Below, one piece after another: positions 4,201-43,612 of a stretch of 64,000 bases of DNA (the first letter of the stretch is position 1; every line of letters starts with the position of its first letter). A program made the position numbers and the translations under genes. The DNA comes from an uncultured bacterium (GTDB lineage Bacteria > Patescibacteriota > Minisyncoccia > UBA6257 > 2-01-FULL-56-20): contig CAWJQC010000006.1 in the NCBI GenBank assembly GCA_963844965.1, positions 32,001 to 96,000 of the forward strand, in the 5' to 3' direction. The notes beneath the pieces are model-generated. The model worked only from the letters and a program-made list of their open reading frames with translations, was not told the DNA's origin and made no database searches.

Positions 4201-6153
4201 ATCCGCATAGACATTTGTGGTGGTTGTGGAAACCTGAACCCGGTCGCCGGCATTGAACTTTGAACTGTTGTTGATGTTAACGGTTACTGTCGGCGACGCG
4301 TAAGAATTTCCGGCGGAGTCATAGGCCTTTACGACAATGTCTTCTTTGCCATTAGCGAAGTTGAGCGTACTGATGGAGAACGAATAGGGCGGCGAATAAC
4401 CAACGAAATACACGCTTCCGCCCCAATAAAGCTCGACTCTGCTTATAGAGCCGCCGCCGGAAACTGTGGCTGTAATCGTTATGTCTCCCGAAACGGTCGC
4501 ACCATTAGTCGGCGAGGTGATATTTACGGTCGGTCCTCCGGTTACGGCGTTTGCCAAATAATTTTCTACGCTCCAGCCGGATGGACCGGAATCATAATTC
4601 ACATCCCACCACCAGTAGTTATCATAAAAATAGGAAATGCCGGTAATAGTTCCCTGCGCGCCGCTTGGCTGCGTACCCAATATGGTGCTCGATACCATCG
4701 GCAGAGTATGTATGTTCAAGTTGGCGGTGGTCTTGACGCGGTTACCGGCGGCGAATTTACTTGAAGAGGCGTTGAGCTCGCTCGCGGCAATTTTTATCAA
4801 GTAACCCTCGACGCTCCATCCCGAAACAGCGTCATCGTACGTCACTTGCCACCAATTATACGAGTTGGCATTAATGGGACCGCCGCTTACTATCCCCTGC
4901 GCTCCCGCGCTCTCCGTACCGACAATAGCGGCGGAAAGCGACTGACCAGCCCTGACGTTCAAATTCACCGTCGCTTGCACCTTATCGCCTATGGAAAATT
5001 TATCGGAAATAACAGCCTTGGCTAAACCCGACTCGTAGCACCACCCCGTAACCGCATCATTGAAAGTCACCTTCCACCAAATATAGCCATCGGCGGGCGT
5101 GGGACCACCGCTTATAGTGCCGCGCGCTCCCGCCTTTTCCGTCCCCACAGCCACGCCCACGGTCGTGGGAGTTGACAGAACACTCAAGTCCGAGTTTGTT
5201 TGCACAATGTCGCCCATTGAAAATTTATTGCTCGTGGTCGGCGCGATACTCACAAGATACTCCTCTATACTCCAGCCGCTTGTCGCATTATCGTCATACT
5301 TCACGTGCCACCAGACAAAACTGTCGGAACTCGTCGGGCCGCCGATAATACTGCCGAGAGAATTCGGCGCCTCTACCCAACCAATGGTGGATGAAAGCGA
5401 GGGGTCGGAACGAACATTCAGATTAGTTGTCGTCCGCACGCGGTCGCCCATTGAAAACGCCACGTAGGTACTCGTAGCCGTGACGGATTCCGTAATTTTC
5501 ACCAAATAATCCTCAACGCTCCACCCCGAGATGCCGTCATCATATATCACTTGCCACCAGGCATAGCCATCAGCGGCAACAGGGCCGCCCATAATGTGGC
5601 CGAGCGTCCCCGAAGCCTCAGACGTCACAATCGTGCCGGAAAGCGAAGGCGTTGAGCGCACATTCAAACTCTCCGTTGTTTGCACGCGATCGTTCTTTGA
5701 AAATTTCACGGAAACCGCCATTGTCGTCGCACTGACGGGCTCGGACCAAGCCGAGACATTTCCCGCGGAATCATAAGCGGCAATCACGTACGTGTACGTG
5801 GTGGCGGGCAGAAGACCTGTGTCAGCATACGTCGTTCCGACTATGCCACTTATGGGAGGAGGCGTACTGTCTCTCAGAATCGCGTAACCAGCCACTCCAA
5901 TATTGTCGGTTGCTGCATCCCAGCTGAGGTCAATTTCTGTGGTCGAAGCTTCCACTACCTTGAAATTAGTGGGGGTGGACGGCGGCGTAACATCTCTTGT
6001 GCTTGTGGCTTGCGCGTGCGCCGTGGCAAGAGAACAAAAAAGTGGGAATATGAAAAACAAAACAAAAACTCCGCACGTAAATAGCCGGAGGTTCTTTGCG
6101 CACCGCTTGTACGTCTTTAGAATAACCGCCGAGATAAAGAGAGTACTTGGCAT
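1300..6153 (-). CDS. Giant secreted or surface protein with FN3, bacterial SH3 and Ig-like repeats (1617 aa)
   Basis: N-terminal hydrophobic signal/anchor. FN3-like 'LSWDAATDNIGVAGY' modules are present. About seven repeats of 'NLNVRS.PSLS..I......G..G.I.GGP....GY.WW.V.YDDG.SGW' look like SH3b domains. Ig-like Big domains 'VSATDNVAV' are also present. Confidence 0.8.
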   Translation of the reverse strand: MPSTLFISAVILKTYKRCAKNLRLFTCGVFVLFFIFPLFCSLATAHAQATSTRDVTPPSTPTNFKVVEASTTEIDLSWDAATDNIGVAGYAILRDSTPPPISGIVGTTYADTGLLPATTYTYVIAAYDSAGNVSAWSEPVSATTMAVSVKFSKNDRVQTTESLNVRSTPSLSGTIVTSEASGTLGHIMGGPVAADGYAWWQVIYDDGISGWSVEDYLVKITESVTATSTYVAFSMGDRVRTTTNLNVRSDPSLSSTIGWVEAPNSLGSIIGGPTSSDSFVWWHVKYDDNATSGWSIEEYLVSIAPTTSNKFSMGDIVQTNSDLSVLSTPTTVGVAVGTEKAGARGTISGGPTPADGYIWWKVTFNDAVTGWCYESGLAKAVISDKFSIGDKVQATVNLNVRAGQSLSAAIVGTESAGAQGIVSGGPINANSYNWWQVTYDDAVSGWSVEGYLIKIAASELNASSSKFAAGNRVKTTANLNIHTLPMVSSTILGTQPSGAQGTITGISYFYDNYWWWDVNYDSGPSGWSVENYLANAVTGGPTVNITSPTNGATVSGDITITATVSGGGSISRVELYWGGSVYFVGYSPPYSFSISTLNFANGKEDIVVKAYDSAGNSYASPTVTVNINNSSKFNAGDRVQVSTTTTNVYADITPSSTISSGPSVFGQLLGTHSSGTLGFISTSSPVYVNGQGWWFIKYDSDPSGWSPEDSLKKYVPPPDTTPPVVSIVSPTSSEIISGTFNVLVNATDNVGVARVYLYVDGTYKGADTQLPYSFVWDTSSTLNATHTLVAVAYDGAGNGTSSLPVVVTTNNPDTTPPVARISYPLNGQTVSGVARVSVSATDNVAVADINLLADGAAIGPAVTSSPVKSLFYTFLWDTNLATNNASHTLNAIAHDASNNLGTSPPVIVGVKNPPPSTKFSIGDRVMAMSSVNVRSLPSTFAPSLAVEPEGSVGTVIGGSEYSDTYFWWEVSFDSGAEGWVAENYLERISENLLIDPGFELGGSAWSDSAFPGRSVTTSDFHGGTHSEEIDVLSTGLQMVSQDVTNIIPGASYTASGWIKASGVGGSGARIYLLWSSSSTPYYPLLSSMSSIYPQGNLVRVDYVGGILGSGGWTNFSNHFTAPWTAKSVRFLLVTDEDTDGVGSAWFDDLGFYNYGPLPTADTTPPTVVINSPKNNSFIPGGTASVYVTATDNTAVSEVDIYIDGNLVASPTVPPYSYSWNTSGTAEGIHTVKAVATDIFNNSSSTTNTFGIDRTPPTTPTGLVAQVVSLTRINLTWSPSSDNIAVAGYKIMRNGSVIATVSSTPSYADNSVSGSACYTYAVSAFDAAGNNSSASTPVSIVTTAPPPSTKFTIGQRVILTSSATNIAVTSAPSTCAAGTPVGTQTYTVDTVPPTVTLTSPADGSTVNSNTLQFTASAWDMGGAQGTVVGGPVYSNASWWWNVNFDSGPSGWVQEDYMKNGGVTKVGFYIKGILISFASSSPYAANFNVSGFPSGGPYPFYAKAYDTAGNVGTSPTNNVSISPPPLDTIPPTITVTSPADNSTLSGVVTVSANASDNVGVTKVEFYVDAMLKDSKTLPPYSFSWDTTKEDNSPHVIYLMAYDAAGNFQASDYLTVTVQN

Positions 6154-6260
6154 GACGGCTTACACACTTATTATAGCAAAATCAACTTGGGCGCCGTTTA
6201 ACAACTGCCGCGCCCGGCTGCGGTATCTAATGACGGAGGTTAAGAATCATATTTTCGCGC

Positions 6261-7745
6261 TCAAACCCAGCCGAGCTTGCCGGTGAGGGTGGCCACGGCG
6301 CCGCGGTTCAGCTTGTCGCCGATTTCGGGAAATTTCTCCAGCTCATCGGCAATAATGTTCTTCACACGGAGAACTTCGGCTTCGTTCCCACCTTCCGCGC
6401 GAACCGTGATATACGGCGACGTATTTGAGGCGCGCACCAATCCCCAACTTTTTTCTCCGACTTGAAAACGGACACCGTCAATCAAGGAGGACTTGAACCT
6501 GCCGCTCAAATCTTTTTGAATCTTGCCGATGATTTCAAATTTTTTCTCGTCGGCGCACGGCAATTTTATCTCCGGCGTGCTCAGGCGCTTGGGTATGCCC
6601 GCGAAGAGAGTGGAAAAGGGCGCACCACTCCGTGACAGGAGTTCAAGCATCTTTCCCGCTCCCCAGAGACCGTCGTCAATTTTAAAATAATCCTCCGTGA
6701 AATAAATATGGCCAGAAGTTTCGCCGCCCAAGATAATATCGTCGTCTTTTCTCAACGTTTCTTTTATCGGCGCGTGCCCCGTGCGGTGCATCAAGGGAAT
6801 GCCGCCATACGAAGGAATCAGCTCCGAAAGAAGTTGCGTACACTTGACGTCGTACAAAATTTTCTTACCGGGATGTCTGCTTAATACATCCTTCGCCAAA
6901 ACAAGAAGTGCTACGTCGCCGGATATAAACTCCCCTTTTTCCGAAATGAAACCGACGCGGTCGCCGTCAGCGTCAAAAGCAATGCCGACATCGGCTTTTT
7001 CCTCTACAACTTTCTTTTGCAAATCAACGAGCGATTCTCTGGCTTCTGGGTCGGGAATATGGTGCGGAAAAGTAGCATCAGGTTCTATGTAAAGGCCGAC
7101 GACGTCGCAGCCCAATGCCCCGAATAGGTCCGGCGCGAAAACTCCGGCGCTGCCATTGCCCGTATCAATCACTACCTTAAACGGCTTTGCGATCTTTATA
7201 TGCTCCAAGAAATACTCGCGGTATGATTTATAGCCGTCAAGCTTTTTAAGTTTTCCTATTTTATCATCCAATAATTTTCCCGACTCAATCATCCCGCGCA
7301 TTTTCTGCAACTCCTCTCCGAAAAGTGGCCAGTTGTCCTTTTTCATCAACTTAAAGCCGTTGAAAAAATAAACGTTGTGGCTGCCGGTCACGTTAACGCC
7401 GCCGTCAAAATGCACATACGCGGTTATAAAATAAACAATAGGAGTAAGCGCCACGCCCAAATCGGTTACATCGCAGCCGGTTTTCCGTACGCCCTCAATG
7501 AACGCTCCCGTAAGCTCGTCAGCAAACGGGCGCAATTCATGCCCGACGACGACATTTTTTCCACCCCCTCTGCGTATGATCGTGCCGTAGGCCTGACCGA
7601 TGGCCCTCGCGGCGTCAAGCGTAAGCGTTACGCCCGGAAACGGTCCGTACCACCTCTCGTATTCTTCCACTATTTTCTTATTAAACTCGCTGCCGGCAAT
7701 TCCGCGGATGTCGTACTCGCGGAAGATTGATTTATTGATTGTCAT
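6261..7745 (-). CDS. Phosphomannomutase/phosphoglucomutase (alpha-D-phosphohexomutase family, 495 aa)
   Basis: Active-site 'TGSHN' and sugar-phosphate-binding 'GGETSGHIYF' motifs. The listed ORF begins 123 codons earlier with low-complexity sequence. The plausible start is the ATG at 7743-7745 (MTINKSIFREYDIRGIAG). Confidence 0.85.
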   Translation of the reverse strand: MTINKSIFREYDIRGIAGSEFNKKIVEEYERWYGPFPGVTLTLDAARAIGQAYGTIIRRGGGKNVVVGHELRPFADELTGAFIEGVRKTGCDVTDLGVALTPIVYFITAYVHFDGGVNVTGSHNVYFFNGFKLMKKDNWPLFGEELQKMRGMIESGKLLDDKIGKLKKLDGYKSYREYFLEHIKIAKPFKVVIDTGNGSAGVFAPDLFGALGCDVVGLYIEPDATFPHHIPDPEARESLVDLQKKVVEEKADVGIAFDADGDRVGFISEKGEFISGDVALLVLAKDVLSRHPGKKILYDVKCTQLLSELIPSYGGIPLMHRTGHAPIKETLRKDDDIILGGETSGHIYFTEDYFKIDDGLWGAGKMLELLSRSGAPFSTLFAGIPKRLSTPEIKLPCADEKKFEIIGKIQKDLSGRFKSSLIDGVRFQVGEKSWGLVRASNTSPYITVRAEGGNEAEVLRVKNIIADELEKFPEIGDKLNRGAVATLTGKLGWV

Positions 7746-7902
7746 GCTTAAATATCTTGTCAAATTCAGTATAACTCCCCCCTTAAATAACAAAAGTGGC
7801 TTTCTTGTGGAGTGTGAAAAAAGTTGTTGCAATTTTATCAGGAATCTGCTTAAGTTAGCGTAGATTTTTCGAGAAGCAATCGGTAATAATCTGGAGGCGA
7901 AA

Positions 7903-8657
7903 ATGCCTAAGCGCAAGTTGCAATTGTTAGTGGATCCAAATAAGTGTCTTGATATATTTGGCGCACTAAACCTCCTCGTCAGTTCACAACCGCTGTCCCT
8001 ACGCGAGCAGGAACTACTTGCAAATCTCATAAAGAATCGCGCCCGAGTACTGGAATCATTGAATCTCTTGGTCAGCCCGATAGTAATGGTACACGTCCTG
8101 CCGGGAGGAATCATGCCCAGAAGGATGACGCCAGGCGCTATTGGTTATGATGTCGGTCTAAGGGCTCTGGTTTCTCCTTGGGACATGGAAGAAGAAACTC
8201 CCCATCTGAGAAAAAAAATTGTTCGGCTTTGATTGCAGAACGTCGGAATACCCGGAAATCATGAAAAGCGTGGCTGAGATAAGAAACGAGAACGACAAAC
8301 CGGAGTTGGTGTACCGACTCCATCCGGGAAAATCGGTGACGGTGGGCGTTGGATTTGTCACCGCAATGCCGTTCCCCATGTTTTACTGGGATACTCCCCG
8401 CAGCGGATTGGCGTCAAAATGGCTCATCACGCTCGGTAATGCTCCGGGGACGGTTGACCCCGATTACCGCGGAGAGGCTGGCGTAATTGTAGTAAATAAC
8501 AGCGATAAAGTTTACGAGCTCAGACACAACATGCGCATCGCCCAAATTATCTTTACTTTCGCGCTGATTCCTAAACTCATACCGGTCGCAAAATACGAAG
8601 TATCTGCCAAAAACCATCCGCGGCGCCGGTGGCTTCGGCTCAACCGGTATGCGATAA
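7903..8657 (+). pseudogene. dut: dUTPase (dut) interrupted by two single-nucleotide frameshifts
   Basis: Motif 1 'PGAIGYDVGLRA' is in frame 1. Motifs 2-4 'PRSGLA', 'GTVDPDYRGE', 'RIAQ' are in frame 2 (ORF 8219..8665). Motif 5 'RGAGGFGSTG' is in frame 3 (8619-8657). The shifts fall in an A8 run at 8211-8218 and an A4 run at 8610-8613. Confidence 0.75.
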
Positions 8658-9073: not shown

Positions 9074-10057
9074 TTACATGGTCGGCATCGGCACGTTCTT
9101 GTCAACAACGTCACCGACAACCTCTCCCACTGCACACTCCTTGGCAACGCTCCACGGCATTCCCGTCCTCTTTACGGTCTCGCGAAGAGCCGCCTCAAAG
9201 ATCCCTTCTTTGTAATTCTGGACGTCTTCAACCCTCGGACCAATTCCATAGCCATAAGGACCTCCCCAGCCGCCGTAAAGACTGCCGCCTATGCCCATTC
9301 GCCCGCCCATAAAACCGCGGTAGAACATGCCCCCGCCGTATCCTGTGCCATATACTTGCGGCTGTCCAAAATCAATGACCGAAGAAGACGACTTGAGGAA
9401 ATTCTTGGCGCTGTGCAAGAAATGATGACCCAATAATTTTCCCACTTTCATATGTTTTATGGCGTCATAATCCTGGAGTGTCATGCCGACCTTATCCGTT
9501 ACTTTAATCTTATCCAAAATCTCTGTCTGGAGATATTCTACGCGCGCCCTGAAGAGCGGCGTGTTCTCAGTATCGTTCAGCATCGCTTCGTACCAATTTT
9601 TAAGCGCGTGGTTGGATGTTTTCTTGACCAACTTGGCCAATCCATCCACGGTTTGGCTCTGTTCAGAGAAACTGGCGTGCGAAAATTCGCCTTCCATGTG
9701 GTTCTGGATATTGGCCTCAAAGTAAGCGAGAGCTTCGCCGCTCAACTTATGCGCCTCGGCGGATTTCATTTGGTTGGCCACATCAACAATGCTTTGAGAT
9801 TTTGAGAAGACACCGTTCAGATAATTGTCTATCGCGGCCCTCTGTGCCGGCGCGATTCCCCTCACTGCTTCTGCAGCCGCTTCGGCATGCAGAACGGGCG
9901 CGGCTTCGGCTCCCGGCGCCGTCATTTCCGTTTGTGGCGCAACCTCGTGGAACTTCGGCAATAACCTCCATAAGTTCCATTCCTCGCCTATACGTATACG
10001 CAACTCCGGCGCACAACTGGATCTTTCGCAAAATTTCCTATAAGATGGGAGCACCAA
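9074..10057 (-). CDS. Probable C-terminal continuation of the large protein (327 aa ORF, Gly/Tyr-rich tail)
   Basis: Shares the 'H.SFSEQ.Q' motif with the upstream ORF and has a 'GTGYGGGMFYRGFMGGRMGIGGSLYGGWGGPYGYGIG' low-complexity region. Its first ~25 residues are likely out-of-frame read-through. Confidence 0.5.
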   Translation of the reverse strand: MVLPSYRKFCERSSCAPELRIRIGEEWNLWRLLPKFHEVAPQTEMTAPGAEAAPVLHAEAAAEAVRGIAPAQRAAIDNYLNGVFSKSQSIVDVANQMKSAEAHKLSGEALAYFEANIQNHMEGEFSHASFSEQSQTVDGLAKLVKKTSNHALKNWYEAMLNDTENTPLFRARVEYLQTEILDKIKVTDKVGMTLQDYDAIKHMKVGKLLGHHFLHSAKNFLKSSSSVIDFGQPQVYGTGYGGGMFYRGFMGGRMGIGGSLYGGWGGPYGYGIGPRVEDVQNYKEGIFEAALRETVKRTGMPWSVAKECAVGEVVGDVVDKNVPMPTM

Positions 10058-27129: not shown

Positions 27130-27235
27130 TGTGCCGCGGGAGAGATTCGAACTCTCATAGTCTTACGACTGCTGGCTCATACTCGCCCCGTACCGAGCTT
27201 TGCTCCGGTGCGGGGAAGCCAGTGCGCCACGCACT
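27130..27235 (-). other. tRNA-like fragment (canonical T-arm GAGAG-TTCGAAT-CTCTC, no complete cloverleaf)
   Basis: The minus strand has a perfect T-arm followed by 'CCGCGGCA', but I could not find a matching 5' acceptor strand. Confidence 0.3.
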
Positions 27236-27245
27236 AAATTTTGCC

Positions 27246-27329
27246 GGTGCCGAGGGTGGGATTCGGACCCACAACCCTTTCGGGACAGCGTCCTAAGCGC
27301 TGCGCGTATTCCATTTCCGCCACCTCGGC
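27246..27329 (-). tRNA. tRNA-Leu (anticodon TAG), long variable arm
   Basis: Acceptor GCCGAGG/CCTCGGC. Anticodon stem CAGCG/CGCTG with loop CTTAGGA. Variable arm about 16 nt. T-arm GTGGG-TCCGAAT-CCCAC. Discriminator A followed by CC. Confidence 0.7.
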
Positions 27330-27639
27330 AAAATTTAGTGCGGTGTTCCGCCACCGCGACATTTGCGCGGGGATGAACCTGCCTACCAGCAAGCAGGCCC
27401 GCCAACCTGCCCGCACCGCTCCCATCACTGTTTATCTTAAATCCCGCCATCGTTTTATTCAACAACACGGCAGAATTCCGCAACGCCCATAAAAATGCCG
27501 GTGAGATAAAGCTCCATGGGCTTACCTGCGCTTCGCCGAGGCTGCGGCAAGGCGAGCGCCCGTGGTATCTGGAAGCTTTACCCCGCCCCGACCGCGGTCG
27601 GGGCGGGGTATTCAGCGGGGATTTAATATAAAAAACCAA

Positions 27640-39802: not shown

Positions 39803-40039
39803 CTAATGGACGCCCTCGCCTTTTGTTACTATTCGCCTATTACCCCGCTTCTCAAGATGCCAATGATGGCCTGCCTCGCATTCGTAATCCTCAATTGGAC
39901 ACAGACAACCTCTTATCGCTTTGCGCCCGCAACCGGGTTCGGGACAAAGATAATAACTCTTCTTCTTGCTCCATGGCATCAATCTCTCGCCATACTTGTA
40001 TGGAACTCGGCCCTTTGTAACCTTGTCAATCCATCTCAT
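39803..40039 (-). CDS. Small Cys-rich hypothetical protein (78 aa)
   Basis: 'CPEPGCGRKAIRGCLCPIEDYEC'. Confidence 0.35.
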   Translation of the reverse strand: MRWIDKVTKGRVPYKYGERLMPWSKKKSYYLCPEPGCGRKAIRGCLCPIEDYECEAGHHWHLEKRGNRRIVTKGEGVH

Positions 40040-40155
40040 CCAAGCACCTCGCTAAAGGTTTCTGGTATTTAGTATAAACCAACGGCGGCAAAAATAAAAG
40101 CGGCGCTTTACTTTTTCCCAAAATTTTATATTCTATATTCTGTATCCTGCCTTAT

Positions 40156-40230
40156 GCCTGGGTAGCTCAGTGGTAGAGCGCAGCCCCGAAGAGGCTGGCG
40201 TCCGGTGTTCGATTCACCGCCCAGGCACCA
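40156..40230 (+). tRNA. tRNA-Phe (GAA), CCA encoded
   Basis: GCCTGGG acceptor. D-arm TAGCTCAGTGGTAGAGC. Anticodon stem CAGCC/GGCTG with loop CCGAAGA. T-arm CGGTG-TTCGATT-CACCG. Confidence 0.8.
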
Positions 40231-40232
40231 AA

Positions 40233-40260
40233 AGAAAAACCCACGTTTAGTGGGTTTTTC
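40233..40260 (+). terminator. Terminator hairpin after tRNA-Phe
   Basis: aaaaacccacgtttagtgggttttt. Confidence 0.6.
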
Positions 40261-40261
40261 T

Positions 40262-40370
40262 TTTGTTCGGTCGGGCTGCCCGGATTCGAACTGGGACTAA
40301 ATTTTACCCCGTAGCATCCGGCTTTAGTCGGATTGCTTCGGGGCCTCCCACCCCGCACTAAAAATTTACA
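40262..40370. other. tRNA-like or tmRNA-like fragment carrying hairpin element copy 1 (40307..40343)
   Basis: 'GGGCTGCCCGGATTCGAACTGGG' resembles a tmRNA 5' 'GGGGCUG..GGAUUCGAC' motif. It equally resembles the reverse complement of a T-arm plus 3' acceptor. No complete cloverleaf is found on either strand. It is followed by 'ccccgtagcatccggctttagtcggattgcttcgggg'. Confidence 0.3.
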
Positions 40371-40371
40371 T

Positions 40372-40442
40372 TCGGACTGCTGGGAGTCGAACCCAGGCCG
40401 CGTGCTCCCAAAGCACGTATACTACCGCTATACGACAGTCCG
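40372..40442 (-). tRNA. tRNA-Pro (TGG)
   Basis: Acceptor CGGACTG/CAGTCCG. Anticodon stem CGTGC/GCACG with loop TTTGGGA (U33, G37). T-arm CTGGG-TTCGACT-CCCAG. Confidence 0.8.
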
Positions 40443-40628
40443 ATAAATTTTAATCGCTTAGCTCATAAAATCGGTTCATTCGGAGAAAATGAAAACCGAA
40501 TTTTCATTTTCTCCTCACTGCCAATTTTAGTATGGGGCAAGAAGGACTCGTGCTAGCCGTTACACTACAGCCCGTCTCGCGCCCCTTTAACTTATTCGAT
40601 TTTTGATTTAAAATCAATGCGAGCTTCT

Positions 40629-40656
40629 GCCCCTATAGCTCAATATGGATAGACCT
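40629..40656 (+). other. Partial degenerate copy of the tRNA-Arg 5' half
   Basis: 'gcccctatagctcaatatggatagacc' compared with the tRNA-Arg 5' half 'gccctcgtagttcaatggatagaactcc'. Confidence 0.45.
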
Positions 40657-40702
40657 ATCTGCCGGCAGGCGGGGTAGCGCTCTTCCCAGCCCACCATAAT
40701 TT

Positions 40703-40774
40703 GCCCTCGTAGTTCAATGGATAGAACTCCGGACTTCTAAGCCGGATATGGGGGTTCGATTCCTCCCGAGGGCG
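40703..40774 (+). tRNA. tRNA-Arg (TCT)
   Basis: Acceptor GCCCTCG/CGAGGGC. D-stem GTTC/GAAC. Anticodon loop CTTCTAA. T-arm GGGGG-TTCGATT-CCTCC. Confidence 0.75.
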
Positions 40775-40809
40775 CGAAAACAGATATCGACTTTTTCGCA
40801 AAATTAGGT

Positions 40810-41601
40810 ATGAAACTAATCTCCCTGAACATCTGGGGCGGCAAAGTATACGAACCGCTCATAAAATTCGTAAAAGAATCGGCGCCGAGCACCGACATTT
40901 TTTACTTTCAGGAAGTTTTTTTCTCAAAATCAGGCATAAAAGAGAGCCATGGCACACGGGTGAATATATTGGAAGATCTTGCCGCGGTTCTTCCCGATTT
41001 CCGTTCTTTTGTCGCGCCCACGGCGAGCGGTTACGACAACGCAGGCCCCGTGGATTTTGACATAACCGAAGCGAAGGTGGTTTTTCTGAAAAAAAATCCG
41101 GCCTATCTCGCAACGGCCGACGGAAATGTCTTCACCTCGGGAAACTATCGGCGTCTAAGCAGAAACGAAAAAATGGAGAATGTACCGACCAACTTTCAAT
41201 ACCTGCGATTGTCAGCGAATGGCAAAAAATTTGCCATTTTAAACGTCCACGGTGTATCTAGGCCTGGCGACAAGCTTGACACGTCGGAACGCCTCGCGCA
41301 GTCGCAAAAAATAGTGGACTTCCTGCGCGGCGAAGACGGCGCGAAAATTATCTGCGGCGATTTCAACTTACTGCCGCAAACGAAAAGCATCGCGATGATT
41401 GAGAACGCGGGGATGATAAATCTGATAAAAAAATTCAATATTGAGCTTACGCGCAGCCGACTGTCCCCATTCTTCGGCAAGCCCGATTTTCAAAAATTCG
41501 CCGATTACGCGTTTGTCTCGCGGGACGTCAATGTGATAAACTTCACCGTCCCGGACATTCCGGTTTCCGACCACCTTCCGCTTGTGCTGGAGTTTTCATA
41601 G
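40810..41601 (+). CDS. Endonuclease/exonuclease/phosphatase (EEP) family protein
   Basis: 'LNIWGG', 'ICGDFNL', 'SDHLPLVLEF' motifs. Confidence 0.75.
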   Translation: MKLISLNIWGGKVYEPLIKFVKESAPSTDIFYFQEVFFSKSGIKESHGTRVNILEDLAAVLPDFRSFVAPTASGYDNAGPVDFDITEAKVVFLKKNPAYLATADGNVFTSGNYRRLSRNEKMENVPTNFQYLRLSANGKKFAILNVHGVSRPGDKLDTSERLAQSQKIVDFLRGEDGAKIICGDFNLLPQTKSIAMIENAGMINLIKKFNIELTRSRLSPFFGKPDFQKFADYAFVSRDVNVINFTVPDIPVSDHLPLVLEFS

Positions 41602-41750
41602 AATATATAATGCGAATAGGGCGCGGAAAGCGCGCTTAGGGCCGACGCCCCGACTAAAACAGCGCGGGGGTCGGCCTCCCGACGCCGACCAATGTCGGGC
41701 GTCGGGACTCAATGGCGGGGCGACTCGTTTATTCACCCCGTTAGATTTAT

Positions 41751-41821
41751 GGGCACTTAGCTCAGTGGCAGAGCGACTCGCTTACACCGAGTAGGTCGGA
41801 GGTTCAATCCCTCCAGTGCCC
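41751..41821 (+). tRNA. tRNA-Val (TAC)
   Basis: GGGCACT acceptor. Anticodon stem ACTCG/CGAGT with loop CTTACAC. T-arm GGAGG-TTCAATC-CCTCC. Confidence 0.85.
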
Positions 41822-41872
41822 ACTAAAAAATCTAATGGGGCAAGCCGAGAAGGCTGCAGGTCCGATTCCTGC

Positions 41873-41976
41873 GTCGCCCACAGTGGCAGAGCGACCGCCT
41901 TACACGCGGTAGGTCGTAGGCTCGCCCCGTAGCAAACCGAAGGTTTTGCTTCGGGGTTCAATCCCTACAGCGCGCA
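41873..41976 (+). other. 5'-truncated tRNA-Val(TAC)-like pseudo-copy with a 36-nt hairpin insertion (41921..41956) between the T-stem and T-loop
   Basis: 'CAGTGGCAGAGCGACCGCCTTACACGCGGTAGGTCGTAGG[ctcgccccgtagcaaaccgaaggttttgcttcgggg]TTCAATCCCTACAGCGCGCA'. No matching 5' acceptor or D-stem is present. Confidence 0.55.
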
Positions 41977-42025
41977 CAAAAACAAAAACGTCCAACTGGG
42001 CCGTTTTTATTTTTGTGCGCTTCAG
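41977..42025 (+). terminator. Long inverted-repeat terminator
   Basis: gcgcacaaaaacaaaaacg...cgtttttatttttgtgcgc. Confidence 0.6.
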
Positions 42026-42133
42026 AACCCTCGGTTCTGAATAATCTCCGACACGGGAGGAACCTCATACTTTCTCGCGCCAATTTCTGAAGAAATTGGC
42101 GGCGCAAGGATTAATCAATATAATAACTAGAAT

Positions 42134-43072
42134 ATGCTCAAAGTCGGCATTTTAGGAGGCGGGCCGTCGGTGGAGCACAAAGTGTCGCTCGCAAGCGCGA
42201 GAAATGTCTACGAGTCCACTGACCGGACGAAATACGAACCGCATCTTCTGATTCTTCGGCGCGACAAAAAATTGTTTTCGGGCAAAAAAGAGCTGCCGTT
42301 CCCGCACGGGCTGAAGCAGTTTGACATCGTATTCAATGCGCTTCACGGAATGTTCGGCGAAGACGGCAAATTGCAGAAAATTTTTGATCGCACGGGCATT
42401 AAATATACCGGCTCCGGCAGCCGCGCCTCCGCGCTCGGCATGGACAAGTGGCGAAGCAAAAAACTATTCGGAAAAGTCGGCTTAGCGGTACCACAATCAA
42501 AACTGATTACGAGCCGGAAACATTCCAACATTCTGCAGAATATTAGAATATTTCCCGTTGTTTTAAAACCCAGGAATGGCGGCTCATCTGTCGGTGTTTG
42601 CATAACGCATTCGCCGGAAGAATTAAAAAGAAAAGTGGATCGGATTCTCGAGAGCGATGACGCCCTTGTTGAACAATACCTGCCAGGCAGAGAATTCGCG
42701 GGTGGCGTTTTGAAATACAACGACGAACTGCGGCCGTTTCCCATCGTGGAAATAAAACCGAAAGCAAAATACAAATTTTTTGACTATGAAGCAAAATACA
42801 AAACGGGCGCGAGCGAAGAAATAGTTCCGGCCCGCATCGATACCGCACTCGCGCGAAAAATCCAAAAAGCCGCGCTCTTGGCCCACAAAGTTATCGGCGC
42901 TAAAACATATTCCCGAAGCGATTTCATCATGCACAACGGAAAAATTTATATTCTTGAAATCAATACCCTGCCCGGCCTAACGAAAAATTCTCTCGTTCCG
43001 AAAGCCGCGCGTGCTACGGGAATTCCCTTCACGAAATTTATAAGCATCGTCATTGATTCTGCTTTAAAATAA
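42134..43072 (+). CDS. ddl: D-alanine--D-alanine ligase
   Basis: ATP-grasp protein with C-terminal 'EINTLPGLT'. Confidence 0.85.
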   Translation: MLKVGILGGGPSVEHKVSLASARNVYESTDRTKYEPHLLILRRDKKLFSGKKELPFPHGLKQFDIVFNALHGMFGEDGKLQKIFDRTGIKYTGSGSRASALGMDKWRSKKLFGKVGLAVPQSKLITSRKHSNILQNIRIFPVVLKPRNGGSSVGVCITHSPEELKRKVDRILESDDALVEQYLPGREFAGGVLKYNDELRPFPIVEIKPKAKYKFFDYEAKYKTGASEEIVPARIDTALARKIQKAALLAHKVIGAKTYSRSDFIMHNGKIYILEINTLPGLTKNSLVPKAARATGIPFTKFISIVIDSALK

Positions 43073-43108: not shown

Positions 43109-43546
43109 ATGCAAGTTATTGCGGAAAATCGGCGGGCTAGGTTTGACTACACGATAACTGAAACCCTTGAAGCCGGCATTGAACTTCTGGGCCACGAAGT
43201 GAAAAGCGCGAAAGCTGGCCGGCTAAATCTGGCCGGAAGTTACGTGATTGTCCGCGCGGGCGAGGCCTGGCTCATAAATTCGCAAATCCCGCCCTACCAG
43301 CCGAAAAATACTGCGGCGGATTACGACCCTTCGCGCTCGCGGCGGCTCTTGCTGCAAAAGGATGAGATTGCGAAACTTGCCGGCGCGTTCAAGGCAAAGC
43401 AATTTCTGATTCCCCTCCACGCCTACATAAAAAATAATTTCATAAAAATAGAACTCGGCCTCGGAAAATCCAGAAAGAAATCCGACAAACGGGAAATTTT
43501 GAAGAAACGCGCCGCCGAAAAGGAAATAAAACAACTTGCCCCGTAG
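43109..43546 (+). CDS. smpB: SsrA-binding protein SmpB
   Basis: 'IAENRRARFDYTITETLEAGIELLGHEVKSAKAGRLNL'. Confidence 0.85.
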   Translation: MQVIAENRRARFDYTITETLEAGIELLGHEVKSAKAGRLNLAGSYVIVRAGEAWLINSQIPPYQPKNTAADYDPSRSRRLLLQKDEIAKLAGAFKAKQFLIPLHAYIKNNFIKIELGLGKSRKKSDKREILKKRAAEKEIKQLAP

Positions 43547-43612
43547 TCCCAACTATGGGGTTAGCGGTTTCCACGCACAAAAACAAAGAAGTGGTATAAC
43601 GCCCGAAACACA

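Follow-up and report, generated by a model that had tools for sequence, protein, structure and literature searches.

The window analysed here, a 64,000-nt stretch of Patescibacteria DNA (contig CAWJQC010000006.1, positions 32,001 to 96,000), carries two copies of a small tagged hairpin, each set within the pieces of a broken tRNA gene. We believe it probable that these hairpins are very short palindromic DNA insertion elements, dispersed through Patescibacteria genomes, and that they represent a tolerated selfish element and not an intron.

The pattern CCCCGTAGCA N8-30 TGCTTCGGGG has exactly two matches in the window, at 40307-40343 and 41925-41956 (both on the plus strand), and none in any of 100 shuffles. 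An initial annotation had pointed out both hairpins at these positions and had proposed either a small mobile hairpin that targets tRNA T arms or a non-canonical tRNA intron. Each copy folds as a single hairpin whose base stem is 10 bp long and contains a conserved T.T mismatch; the tips of the two differ (-23.5 and -16.8 kcal/mol, with z of -5.7 and -3.5). Rfam assigned neither hairpin when 39900-42200 was searched at the gathering cut-off and at E <= 10, the only hit being a chance CRISPR-DR36 match (E = 4.6). The window holds two exact copies and about six hairpins of a broader CCCC...GGGG class. Of the related hairpins, cttg+CCCCGTAGTCCCAACTATGGGG at 43535-43560 overlaps the end of smpB, and ttta+CCCCGCCCCGACCGCGGTCGGGGCGGGG at 27577-27608 lies in a non-coding stretch past a group of tRNA-Leu pieces described below.

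The first copy occupies the 3' strand of the anticodon stem of an outer tRNA-Pro, here called Pro', at GGAGG^ATTTAGT on the minus strand (Table 1). The initial annotation had set it beside an orphan T-arm or tmRNA-like motif; it does adjoin what is left of a tRNA-Pro T arm and acceptor (40271-40302, minus strand), which is that orphan T-arm and the 3' piece of Pro', but it is inserted in the anticodon stem, and the motif does not resemble tmRNA. Syntenic relatives were retrieved via Ddl, among them L005 and L002 (L-numbers denote loci of other genomes). At 7899-7971, L005 has an uninterrupted syntenic tRNA-Pro(UGG), with acceptor CGGGCUG/CAGCCCG and no hairpin. Removal of 40303-40343 and 40351-40541 from the window joins 40542-40574, 40344-40350 and 40271-40302 into a 72-nt tRNA-Pro(UGG), which is called by ARAGORN and is identical to the L005 gene at 71 of 72 positions. 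The presence of the element in some relatives and its absence from others mark it as an insertion, and there is no target duplication at the two sites that can be read at the nucleotide level, the anticodon stem of Pro' and the tRNA-Val T arm described next. The near-identity of Pro' to a functional gene is found although the Ddl of L005 is only 68% identical to that of the window, which would mean either a recent split or continuing selection on the gene. L116/L133, L135 and the Saccharibacteria locus L025 carry the Pro composite as well, and in each the hairpin again occupies GGAGG^ATTTAGT.

The second copy interrupts an outer tRNA-Val, Val'. The second tRNA-Val(TAC)-like sequence that the initial annotation had recognized is real, and tracks tRNA-Val from 41881 onward (anticodon arm ACCGC/CTTACAC/GCGGT, T-stem GTAGG/CCTAC, acceptor AGCGCGC-A). 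The tag CTCG and its 32-nt hairpin (41921-41956, 36 nt) are read exactly between T-stem and T-loop, as had been described, with position 53 and the T-stem 5' strand GTAGG on one side and the T-loop TTCAATC on the other. Neither ARAGORN nor Rfam made a call on the interrupted Val' copy. When CTCG and the hairpin are removed and the GCGCGCTTAG 5' piece (41630-41639) and two supplied bases are added, ARAGORN calls a tRNA-Val; the same construct with the hairpin kept gives no ARAGORN call. A compensatory change is present in the T-stem around the site (GTAGG/CCTAC versus GGAGG/CCTCC), and the same T-arm site is occupied, by hairpins with different tips, at 7885-7921 of L002 and in the Saccharibacteria locus L064. 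The 5' pieces of Val' were assigned by inspection and are less certain than those of Pro'; the putative 5' end, GCGCGCTTAG followed by two hairpins, has the same layout at 9573-9650 of L005. These two adjacent hairpins, GGCCGACGCCCCGA...TCGGGGGTCGGCC and TCCCGACG...CGTCGGGA, lie at 41640-41707 after G10 of the 5' piece, and both are conserved in L005 at 9584-9650.

A scan of one genome per species with CCCCGTAGC N9-32 TGCTTCGGGG found at least 119 loci, mostly in Patescibacteria; all family counts that follow are among the matches listed. Carriers include Saccharibacteria and Nealson-, Nomura-, Wolfe-, Kaiser-, Falkow-, Azam- and Jorgensenbacteria, with a few from other phyla, and matches in high-GC genomes are chance matches, mostly without a pairing interior. 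The element consists of a 4-nt tag (CCTG, CTTG, TTTA or CTCG) and an imperfect hairpin of 29-41 nt, 33-45 bp in total, in which a clamp, CCCCG-T-AGC / GCT-T-CGGGG, encloses a variable, self-complementary tip. CCTG is the tag in 41 cases, CTTG in 20 and TTTA in 19, and the upstream consensus is T-G-C-Y-T-G. Pairing of the interiors was judged by the count of unpaired nucleotides: 75% of 72 distinct interiors have five or fewer, compared with 11% when shuffled. GTAG is invariant at hairpin nucleotides 5-8, an invariance partly imposed by the search pattern; it lies inside the stem, behind CCCC and the 4-nt tag. Copies are mostly solitary. Two matches fell on viral contigs, and the scan of these contigs gave no sign of a phage vector.

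The proposal of a small mobile hairpin is supported by this distribution, since the same family occurs at more than 100 places in other genomes and is absent from the uninterrupted tRNA-Pro of L005. The proposed targeting of T arms is not supported: a tRNA gene is found within ~150 nt of the hairpin at only about a quarter of 60 Patescibacteria loci, many copies are in protein genes, and those in tRNA remnants occupy D arm, anticodon stem and T arm alike.

Several loci show further arrangements of the hairpin. A longer variant, CCCCGTAGCGTGACGCAGCGCAGCGAAGTCTCTGCTTCGGGG, is present on a Bacteroidetes contig (L018, 1816-5632) as four identical 42-nt copies within 4 kb, and isolated copies of the family occur on Vermiphilus, Elusimicrobia, Melioribacteraceae and Lithacetigena contigs, so that the family is not strictly confined to Patescibacteria. 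In AT-rich contexts (L033, L041, L073, L084, L112, L114 and L123), 7-8-nt tandem repeats of one unit flank the hairpin on either side, as in ttcactgttcactgCCTG-hairpin-ttcactg; they could be target duplications, traces of several rounds of insertion and excision, or the result of a target preference. Neither the RtcB site nor the Pro' and T-arm sites showed such repeats. Elsewhere (L031, L042 with two copies, L058, L068, L088 and L125-L134) the hairpin lies in a composite, GGCGGAATTTTTA-hairpin-CNCCCCACACCCCC..TTCCGCC, closed by a long-range helix; it matched no Rfam family and may be another structured RNA or an element that habitually carries the hairpin. Two candidates for a REPtron, a RAYT transposase gene flanked by its repeats, were rejected: in L081 an inverted hairpin pair brackets rpsS and not a transposase, and in L069 a direct pair brackets a toxin-antitoxin pair. 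In the latter (1467-2190, just downstream of fusA), each of the two direct copies is followed by ~45 nt of homologous sequence, and the bracketed proteins are of 88 and 90 aa; it looks as if a toxin-antitoxin cassette had been inserted at a hairpin.

In addition to intergenic DNA and RNA-gene remnants, the element has landed in-frame within essential protein genes. About a quarter of the hairpin-forming copies (21-25 of about 92-99) lie in long open reading frames (ORFs), and copies were found within rpoB, a Mur ligase gene, argS, rtcB, secF, a homoserine dehydrogenase gene and a GT4 glycosyltransferase gene, all confirmed by Pfam, with one further copy near the N-terminus of DnaE. When the RtcB of L044 is compared with Pyrococcus RtcB (PDB 1uc2), it shows one clean insertion of 12 residues. 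At this site, read at the protein level only, the corresponding 36 nt are filled by the 32-nt hairpin and its 4-nt tag, without space for a target duplication. Copies in coding sequence use all three reading frames, and 18 of 21 are a multiple of three nucleotides (3n) in length, two of the three exceptions being tRNA contexts misread as ORFs. Independent related hairpins, chosen without the search pattern, are 3n in four of four coding cases, compared with four of 13 outside ORFs.

The coding strand nearly always reads CCCCGAAGCA...GCTACGGGG+CARG (21:1, or 23:2 by a second method). Strand-directed insertion was considered as the cause and rejected, as intergenic copies show only a weak orientation bias relative to neighbouring ORFs (28:14 for downstream and 28:26 for upstream neighbours). 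The bias within genes therefore looks like selection on the encoded peptide and not like a property of insertion. Frame and orientation together speak for retention of the element in the mRNA, where it would be translated as a hydrophilic loop of 11-15 residues such as PEAEQARYGAG, PKQSKLATGQ or PRSR..SLRGK.

The two window copies lie among genes that are bacterial and of Patescibacteria (Candidate Phyla Radiation, CPR) type, including tmRNA, smpB, gyrA and ddl; the best named relatives of the Ddl protein are from Liptonbacteria, Paceibacterota and Wolfebacteria, and the ORFs neighbouring the copies encode S1, EEP nuclease, Ddl and SmpB. The pieces of the interrupted tRNA genes and the insertions that separate them are listed in Table 1.

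Table 1. Pieces of the outer tRNA-Pro (Pro') and tRNA-Val (Val') genes of the window and the sequences inserted in them
Feature	Position	Strand	Composition
Pro' 3' piece	40271..40302	-	anticodon-stem end, variable loop, T arm CCCAG/TTCGAAT/CCGGG, acceptor CAGCCCG, discriminator A
Hairpin copy 1	40303..40343	+	tag TTTA + 37-nt hairpin CCCCGTAGCATCCGGCTTTAGTCGGATTGCTTCGGGG; 41 nt total
Pro' anticodon-loop/stem piece	40344..40350	-	TGGGAGG, left between both insertions
191-nt insertion in Pro' anticodon loop (TT^TGGGA)	40351..40541	-	CTTG + CCCCATACTAAAATT ... intact tRNA-Pro ... AAATTTTTAGTGCGGGG
Inner intact tRNA-Pro(UGG)	40371..40443	-	ARAGORN; Rfam 59.5 bits
Pro' 5' piece	40542..40574	-	CGGGCTG TA GTGT AACGGCTA GCAC G AGTCC TT
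Probable Val' 5' end	41630..41639	+	GCGCGCT TA G; acceptor strand complements AGCGCGC 41969-41975
Putative decayed D arm and anticodon-stem 5' strand (Val')	41708..41731	+	after two hairpin insertions; read from sequence
tRNA-carrying insertion in Val anticodon loop	41732..41844	+	TTCA + CCCCGTTAGATTTAT, tRNA-Val, TAAAAAATCTAATGGGG + CAAG; arms form 13-bp helix
Intact tRNA-Val(TAC)	41751..41823	+	inside the 41732..41844 insertion
Further tRNA-Val remnant, 3' half	41845..41880	+	C CGAGA AGGCT GCAGG TCCGATT CCTGC GTCGCCC A
Val' D-loop to T-stem 5' strand	41881..41920	+	CAGTGGCA GAGC G ACCGC CTTACAC GCGGT AGGTC GTAGG
Hairpin copy 2	41921..41956	+	tag CTCG + 32-nt hairpin CCCCGTAGCAAACCGAAGGTTTTGCTTCGGGG; 36 nt total
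Val' 3' end	41957..41976	+	T-loop TTCAATC, T-stem 3' strand CCTAC, acceptor AGCGCGC, discriminator A

In RNA genes the hairpins occur in both orientations, and the split gene contains an intact cognate tRNA: the larger insertions in Pro' and Val' each enclose an intact tRNA with the anticodon of the gene that they interrupt. In the build of their ends these larger insertions match the small hairpin, combining a 4-nt tag with a CCCC...GGGG clamp and long paired arms. Homologous insertions are present in L133 and L135; in L135 the outer and the inner tRNA are both CGG, and the outer pieces rejoin into an ARAGORN-valid tRNA. In a metagenome scan, a strict Pro-composite pattern had no match and a relaxed one matched 11 loci, with tRNA-Pro nests in L133 and L135 only. 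An arrangement homologous to the Val insertion of the window is found at 7380-7950 of L002, where three layers of tRNA-Val pieces surround one intact gene, with extra hairpins in D-loops, and where the level-B pieces, once rejoined, are called tRNA-Val by ARAGORN. The further tRNA-Val remnant of the window (41845..41880) was identified by reading of the sequence and its fold.

Leu and Arg nests are likewise present in the window. In the Leu nest (27140-27420), a tRNA-Leu(TAG) at 27246-27329 on the minus strand stands between inverted arms, GCACTAAATTT and AAATTTAGTGC, within a second, split tRNA-Leu, whose T arm and acceptor are found at ~27133-27165, and a related hairpin, ctcg+CCCCGTACCGAGCTTTGCTCCGGTGCGGGG, is located at 27182-27215. 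The 5' half of a second tRNA-Arg (~40632-40702; GCCCCTA TA GCTC AATATGGATAGA ... GCGCT CTTC) immediately precedes the intact tRNA-Arg(TCT) at 40703-40775; its break is in the anticodon loop, it carries a small extra hairpin, and no 3' half was seen on the downstream side. A more complete Arg nest, in which a hairpin occupies the T-loop, is present in L002. Comparison of 6000-6480 with 7380-7950 in L002 shows that arms of the Val-nest helices, TTCACCCCTCACCTTTT among them, have their complements in the Pro nest 1.2 kb away, and this Pro nest has the opposite orientation to that in the window and L005; cross-matched arms and inversion suggest rearrangement through recombination between elements. 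In L005 (9600-9923) a GIY-YIG ORF of 107 aa lies between the 5' piece of Val' and the intact tRNA-Val. Small GIY-YIG ORFs also occur inside or beside tRNA nests or tRNA/tmRNA genes at L035 (3322-3552, between two tRNA-Ile(GAT) copies), L089 (1924-2118), L106 (2963-3184), L110 and L133. They may offer a homing-endonuclease lead on how nests form, and are not evidence for it.

A selfish insertion element would move at the level of DNA, probably as a hairpin, single-stranded or cruciform, on which an enzyme acts in trans. In Pro' and Val' the outer gene would be disabled and its function supplied by the inner tRNA, in which case the outer pieces carry their hairpins at no cost. Where the element is retained in the transcript, as the coding copies suggest, it is better described as a tolerated selfish element than as an intron. 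Several observations weigh against this interpretation. No transposase is linked to the element, and no RAYT-like ORF was found when ~976 kb (the window and the loci, ~8 kb per copy) were searched by tblastn with a single E. coli RayT query, which gave noise only (E >= 0.55). Copy number is low, with two exact copies and about six of the broader class per 64 kb, unlike that of classical repetitive extragenic palindromic (REP) sequences. Of the copies outside ORFs, 47 of 70 are also 3n among the matches listed, so that the length bias arises in part because 29- and 32-nt master copies dominate everywhere. The same sites are filled in distant lineages, the Pro site GGAGG^ATTTAGT in the window, L116/L133, L135 and L025 and the Val site 53/54 in the window, L002 and L064, and the outer stems stay well paired, the compensatory T-stem change included. 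The last two, recurrent sites and kept pairing, are not predicted by a purely neutral view of junk in a pseudogene, and may reflect site-specific homing, transfer of the whole composite or retained function. Site-specific homing, or recombinational transfer of the whole composite within a tRNA gene, would reconcile the 71/72 identity of Pro', which likewise strains the neutral view, with recurrent sites in distant classes.

Nesting of up to three layers, as in L002, suggests serial replacement of a resident tRNA gene by incoming elements that carry a tRNA. We tentatively raise, as a possibility and not as our expectation, that the hairpin-ended, tRNA-carrying insertions are selfish replacement elements which home into the anticodon loop of a cognate tRNA gene, disabling the resident while supplying a new copy, so that repeated rounds would produce Russian-doll nests across Patescibacteria. 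The 33-45-bp hairpins would then be cargo-less relatives of the same mobility system that also colonize protein genes in-frame. If this reading were true, it would describe a previously undescribed bacterial mobile element with a gene-drive-like behaviour at tRNA loci.

Some of the same observations would be accounted for if the hairpin were a structural signal used by the host, either an integron attC-type recombination site for cassettes (tRNA genes, toxin-antitoxin) or an RNA processing or termination hairpin, kept for its role in tRNA composites. The direct hairpin pair of L069, which with its ~45-nt flanks brackets a toxin-antitoxin cassette, fits such a role, as do the tag and clamp that the arms of the tRNA-carrying insertions share with the hairpin, and the cross-matched Val and Pro arms and inverted Pro nest of L002, which suggest recombination. 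Hairpins at the same tRNA site are more alike than copies elsewhere, and a related hairpin stands at the end of smpB (43535-43560). We nevertheless consider this explanation unlikely: the in-frame copies in rpoB, argS, rtcB and similar genes could not be terminators or cassette sites harmlessly, no integrase or recombinase was seen beside the window copies, and the majority of copies are solitary.

The selfish-element interpretation also has to be set against excision at the RNA level, in which an endonuclease reading the CCCC/GGGG-clamped helix would remove both the hairpins and the larger tRNA-carrying insertions as intervening sequences, and an RtcB-type ligase would rejoin the ends, leaving outer tRNAs and mRNAs functional. 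RtcB is indeed encoded in at least one hairpin-carrying Patescibacteria genome (L044), insertions are found in essential genes, and the stems of the outer halves are near-perfect, as illustrated by the 71/72 identity of Pro' to a relative whose Ddl is only 68% identical and by the compensatory T-stem change round the Val' hairpin. An excised element would have no need of 3n lengths and a single orientation in coding sequence. Moreover, no single RNA splice geometry fits, for the sense strand has the tag 5' of the hairpin in the Val' T arm but 3' of it in Pro', in coding sequences and in the copies that occupy D-loops in L002. By inspection, the tags CTCG, CTTG and TTTA have no complement after the hairpin in Val' (TTCAATC), Pro' (TGGGAGG / ATTTAGT) or RtcB, and hence there is no bulge-helix-bulge (BHB) motif. 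The interrupted tRNAs are in addition split by a second, larger insertion with an intact replacement tRNA, and the outer genes of L002, L116 and L133 carry more T- and D-loop insertions, some without partner halves. On these grounds we find RNA-level excision improbable, and with it the non-canonical tRNA intron of the initial annotation; that the outer tRNA genes are still functional through an undescribed bacterial hairpin-splicing pathway is more doubtful still. Least credible, and already largely refuted, is the view that integrase-mediated integration of genomic islands into tRNA genes left the partial tRNA copies behind as att-site duplications, with the hairpins incidental, for although an intact tRNA followed by a direct cognate 3' fragment (Val in the window; L064) is a classical integration signature, 5' fragments are present too, the intact gene is inside the split gene and not at an island end, the pieces are just 5-190 nt apart with no integrase or island, the breaks fall in the anticodon loop or D arm with hairpin-type ends, and the family also occurs far from tRNAs.

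The Patescibacteria, whose genomes are among the smallest in bacteria, appear to tolerate a minute palindromic parasite in genes such as rpoB, rtcB and argS. One practical consequence is that interrupted tRNA genes are missed or mis-called by tRNA finders, and another that gene callers output proteins with unexplained inserts of 11-15 residues; the elements also mark points of recombination and rearrangement. We believe that the nests matter more than the hairpins, as they suggest that incoming cognate copies have repeatedly overwritten the tRNA genes of this phylum. Comparative genomics can thus address both this turnover and any underlying homing mechanism. The nested-tRNA context is unusual and apparently undescribed; a literature search found neither the hairpin family nor nested tRNA genes of CPR bacteria described, although its coverage was incomplete and the result is an absence of evidence only.

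Among known systems, archaeal BHB introns and split or permuted tRNA genes resemble the present case in their short hairpin interruptions, in T and D arms among other places, in having tRNA genes in pieces, and in the presence of RtcB in the lineage. The hBHBh' motif has two 3-nt bulges on either side of a 4-bp helix, in which the 5' end of the intron pairs with exon 2. Here the host is bacterial (tmRNA, SmpB, Ddl), copies also lie in-frame in proteins and in either orientation, and a complete replacement tRNA lies within the split genes. Group I introns, known in tRNA genes of Patescibacteria (PMC13011429), likewise interrupt tRNA genes in the same phylum, but the hairpin of 32-37 nt has no catalytic core, and its insertion sites are outside the anticodon loop. 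The Rfam model Intron_gpI (RF00028) found no match in 39900-42200 even at E <= 10, and it does detect the tRNA-Phe introns of L005, L002 and L116. The group I intron of tRNA-Phe(GAA) lies at 7589-7826 in L005 and 4228-4462 in L002 (Rfam, 73 and 68 bits); the tRNA-Phe of the window (40156-40230) is intronless. Cassettes of homing endonuclease and tRNA, of which the free-standing SegB of T4 in its tRNA cluster is an example, offer a parallel in that a cognate tRNA travels with the selfish unit and displaces the resident allele, and a small GIY-YIG ORF occurs in the Val nest of L005 and near tRNA/tmRNA genes at several loci. The nests of the window differ in having no endonuclease gene and in that the resident gene is split and kept, not replaced.

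The closest described kinds are intragenic GTAG-tagged REPs and the Rickettsia palindromic elements (RPEs). Intragenic REPs, mobilized by RAYT (HUH Y1) transposases, are an established precedent (Di Nocera et al. 2013, PMC3733652), and so are RPEs, which that article cites. Both REPs and the present elements are GC-rich imperfect palindromes of 20-40 bp with a variable tip; both have some copies in replication, repair and tRNA synthetase genes and are patchy across genomes. REPs carry GTAG (or GTGG), the RAYT cleavage site, at one terminus of the palindrome; a GTAG also lies near one end of the present elements, where its constancy is in part a product of the search pattern. The present elements differ in that GTAG is buried in the stem behind a CCCC clamp and an extra 4-nt YYTR tag is present, in a copy number per genome that appears low, with no BIME-like clusters, and in their Patescibacteria host. 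Nor do they share the predominantly extragenic location of REPs, about a quarter of hairpin-forming copies being in long ORFs, and no RAYT-like ORF was found near ~100 copies in what was a weak, single-query tblastn. RPEs, reportedly described by Ogata et al. in 2000, resemble the present elements as selfish palindromes of a reduced genome that lie in-frame in essential protein genes and also in RNA genes, and as insertions tolerated as an extra surface peptide. RPE-1 is 100-150 bp long and confined to Rickettsia. At 33-45 bp, spread over the Patescibacteria superphylum and associated with nested tRNA genes, the elements described here are unrelated to RPEs in size and host, and would represent a second, independent case, after Rickettsia, of selfish DNA in protein-coding genes, at one third the size.

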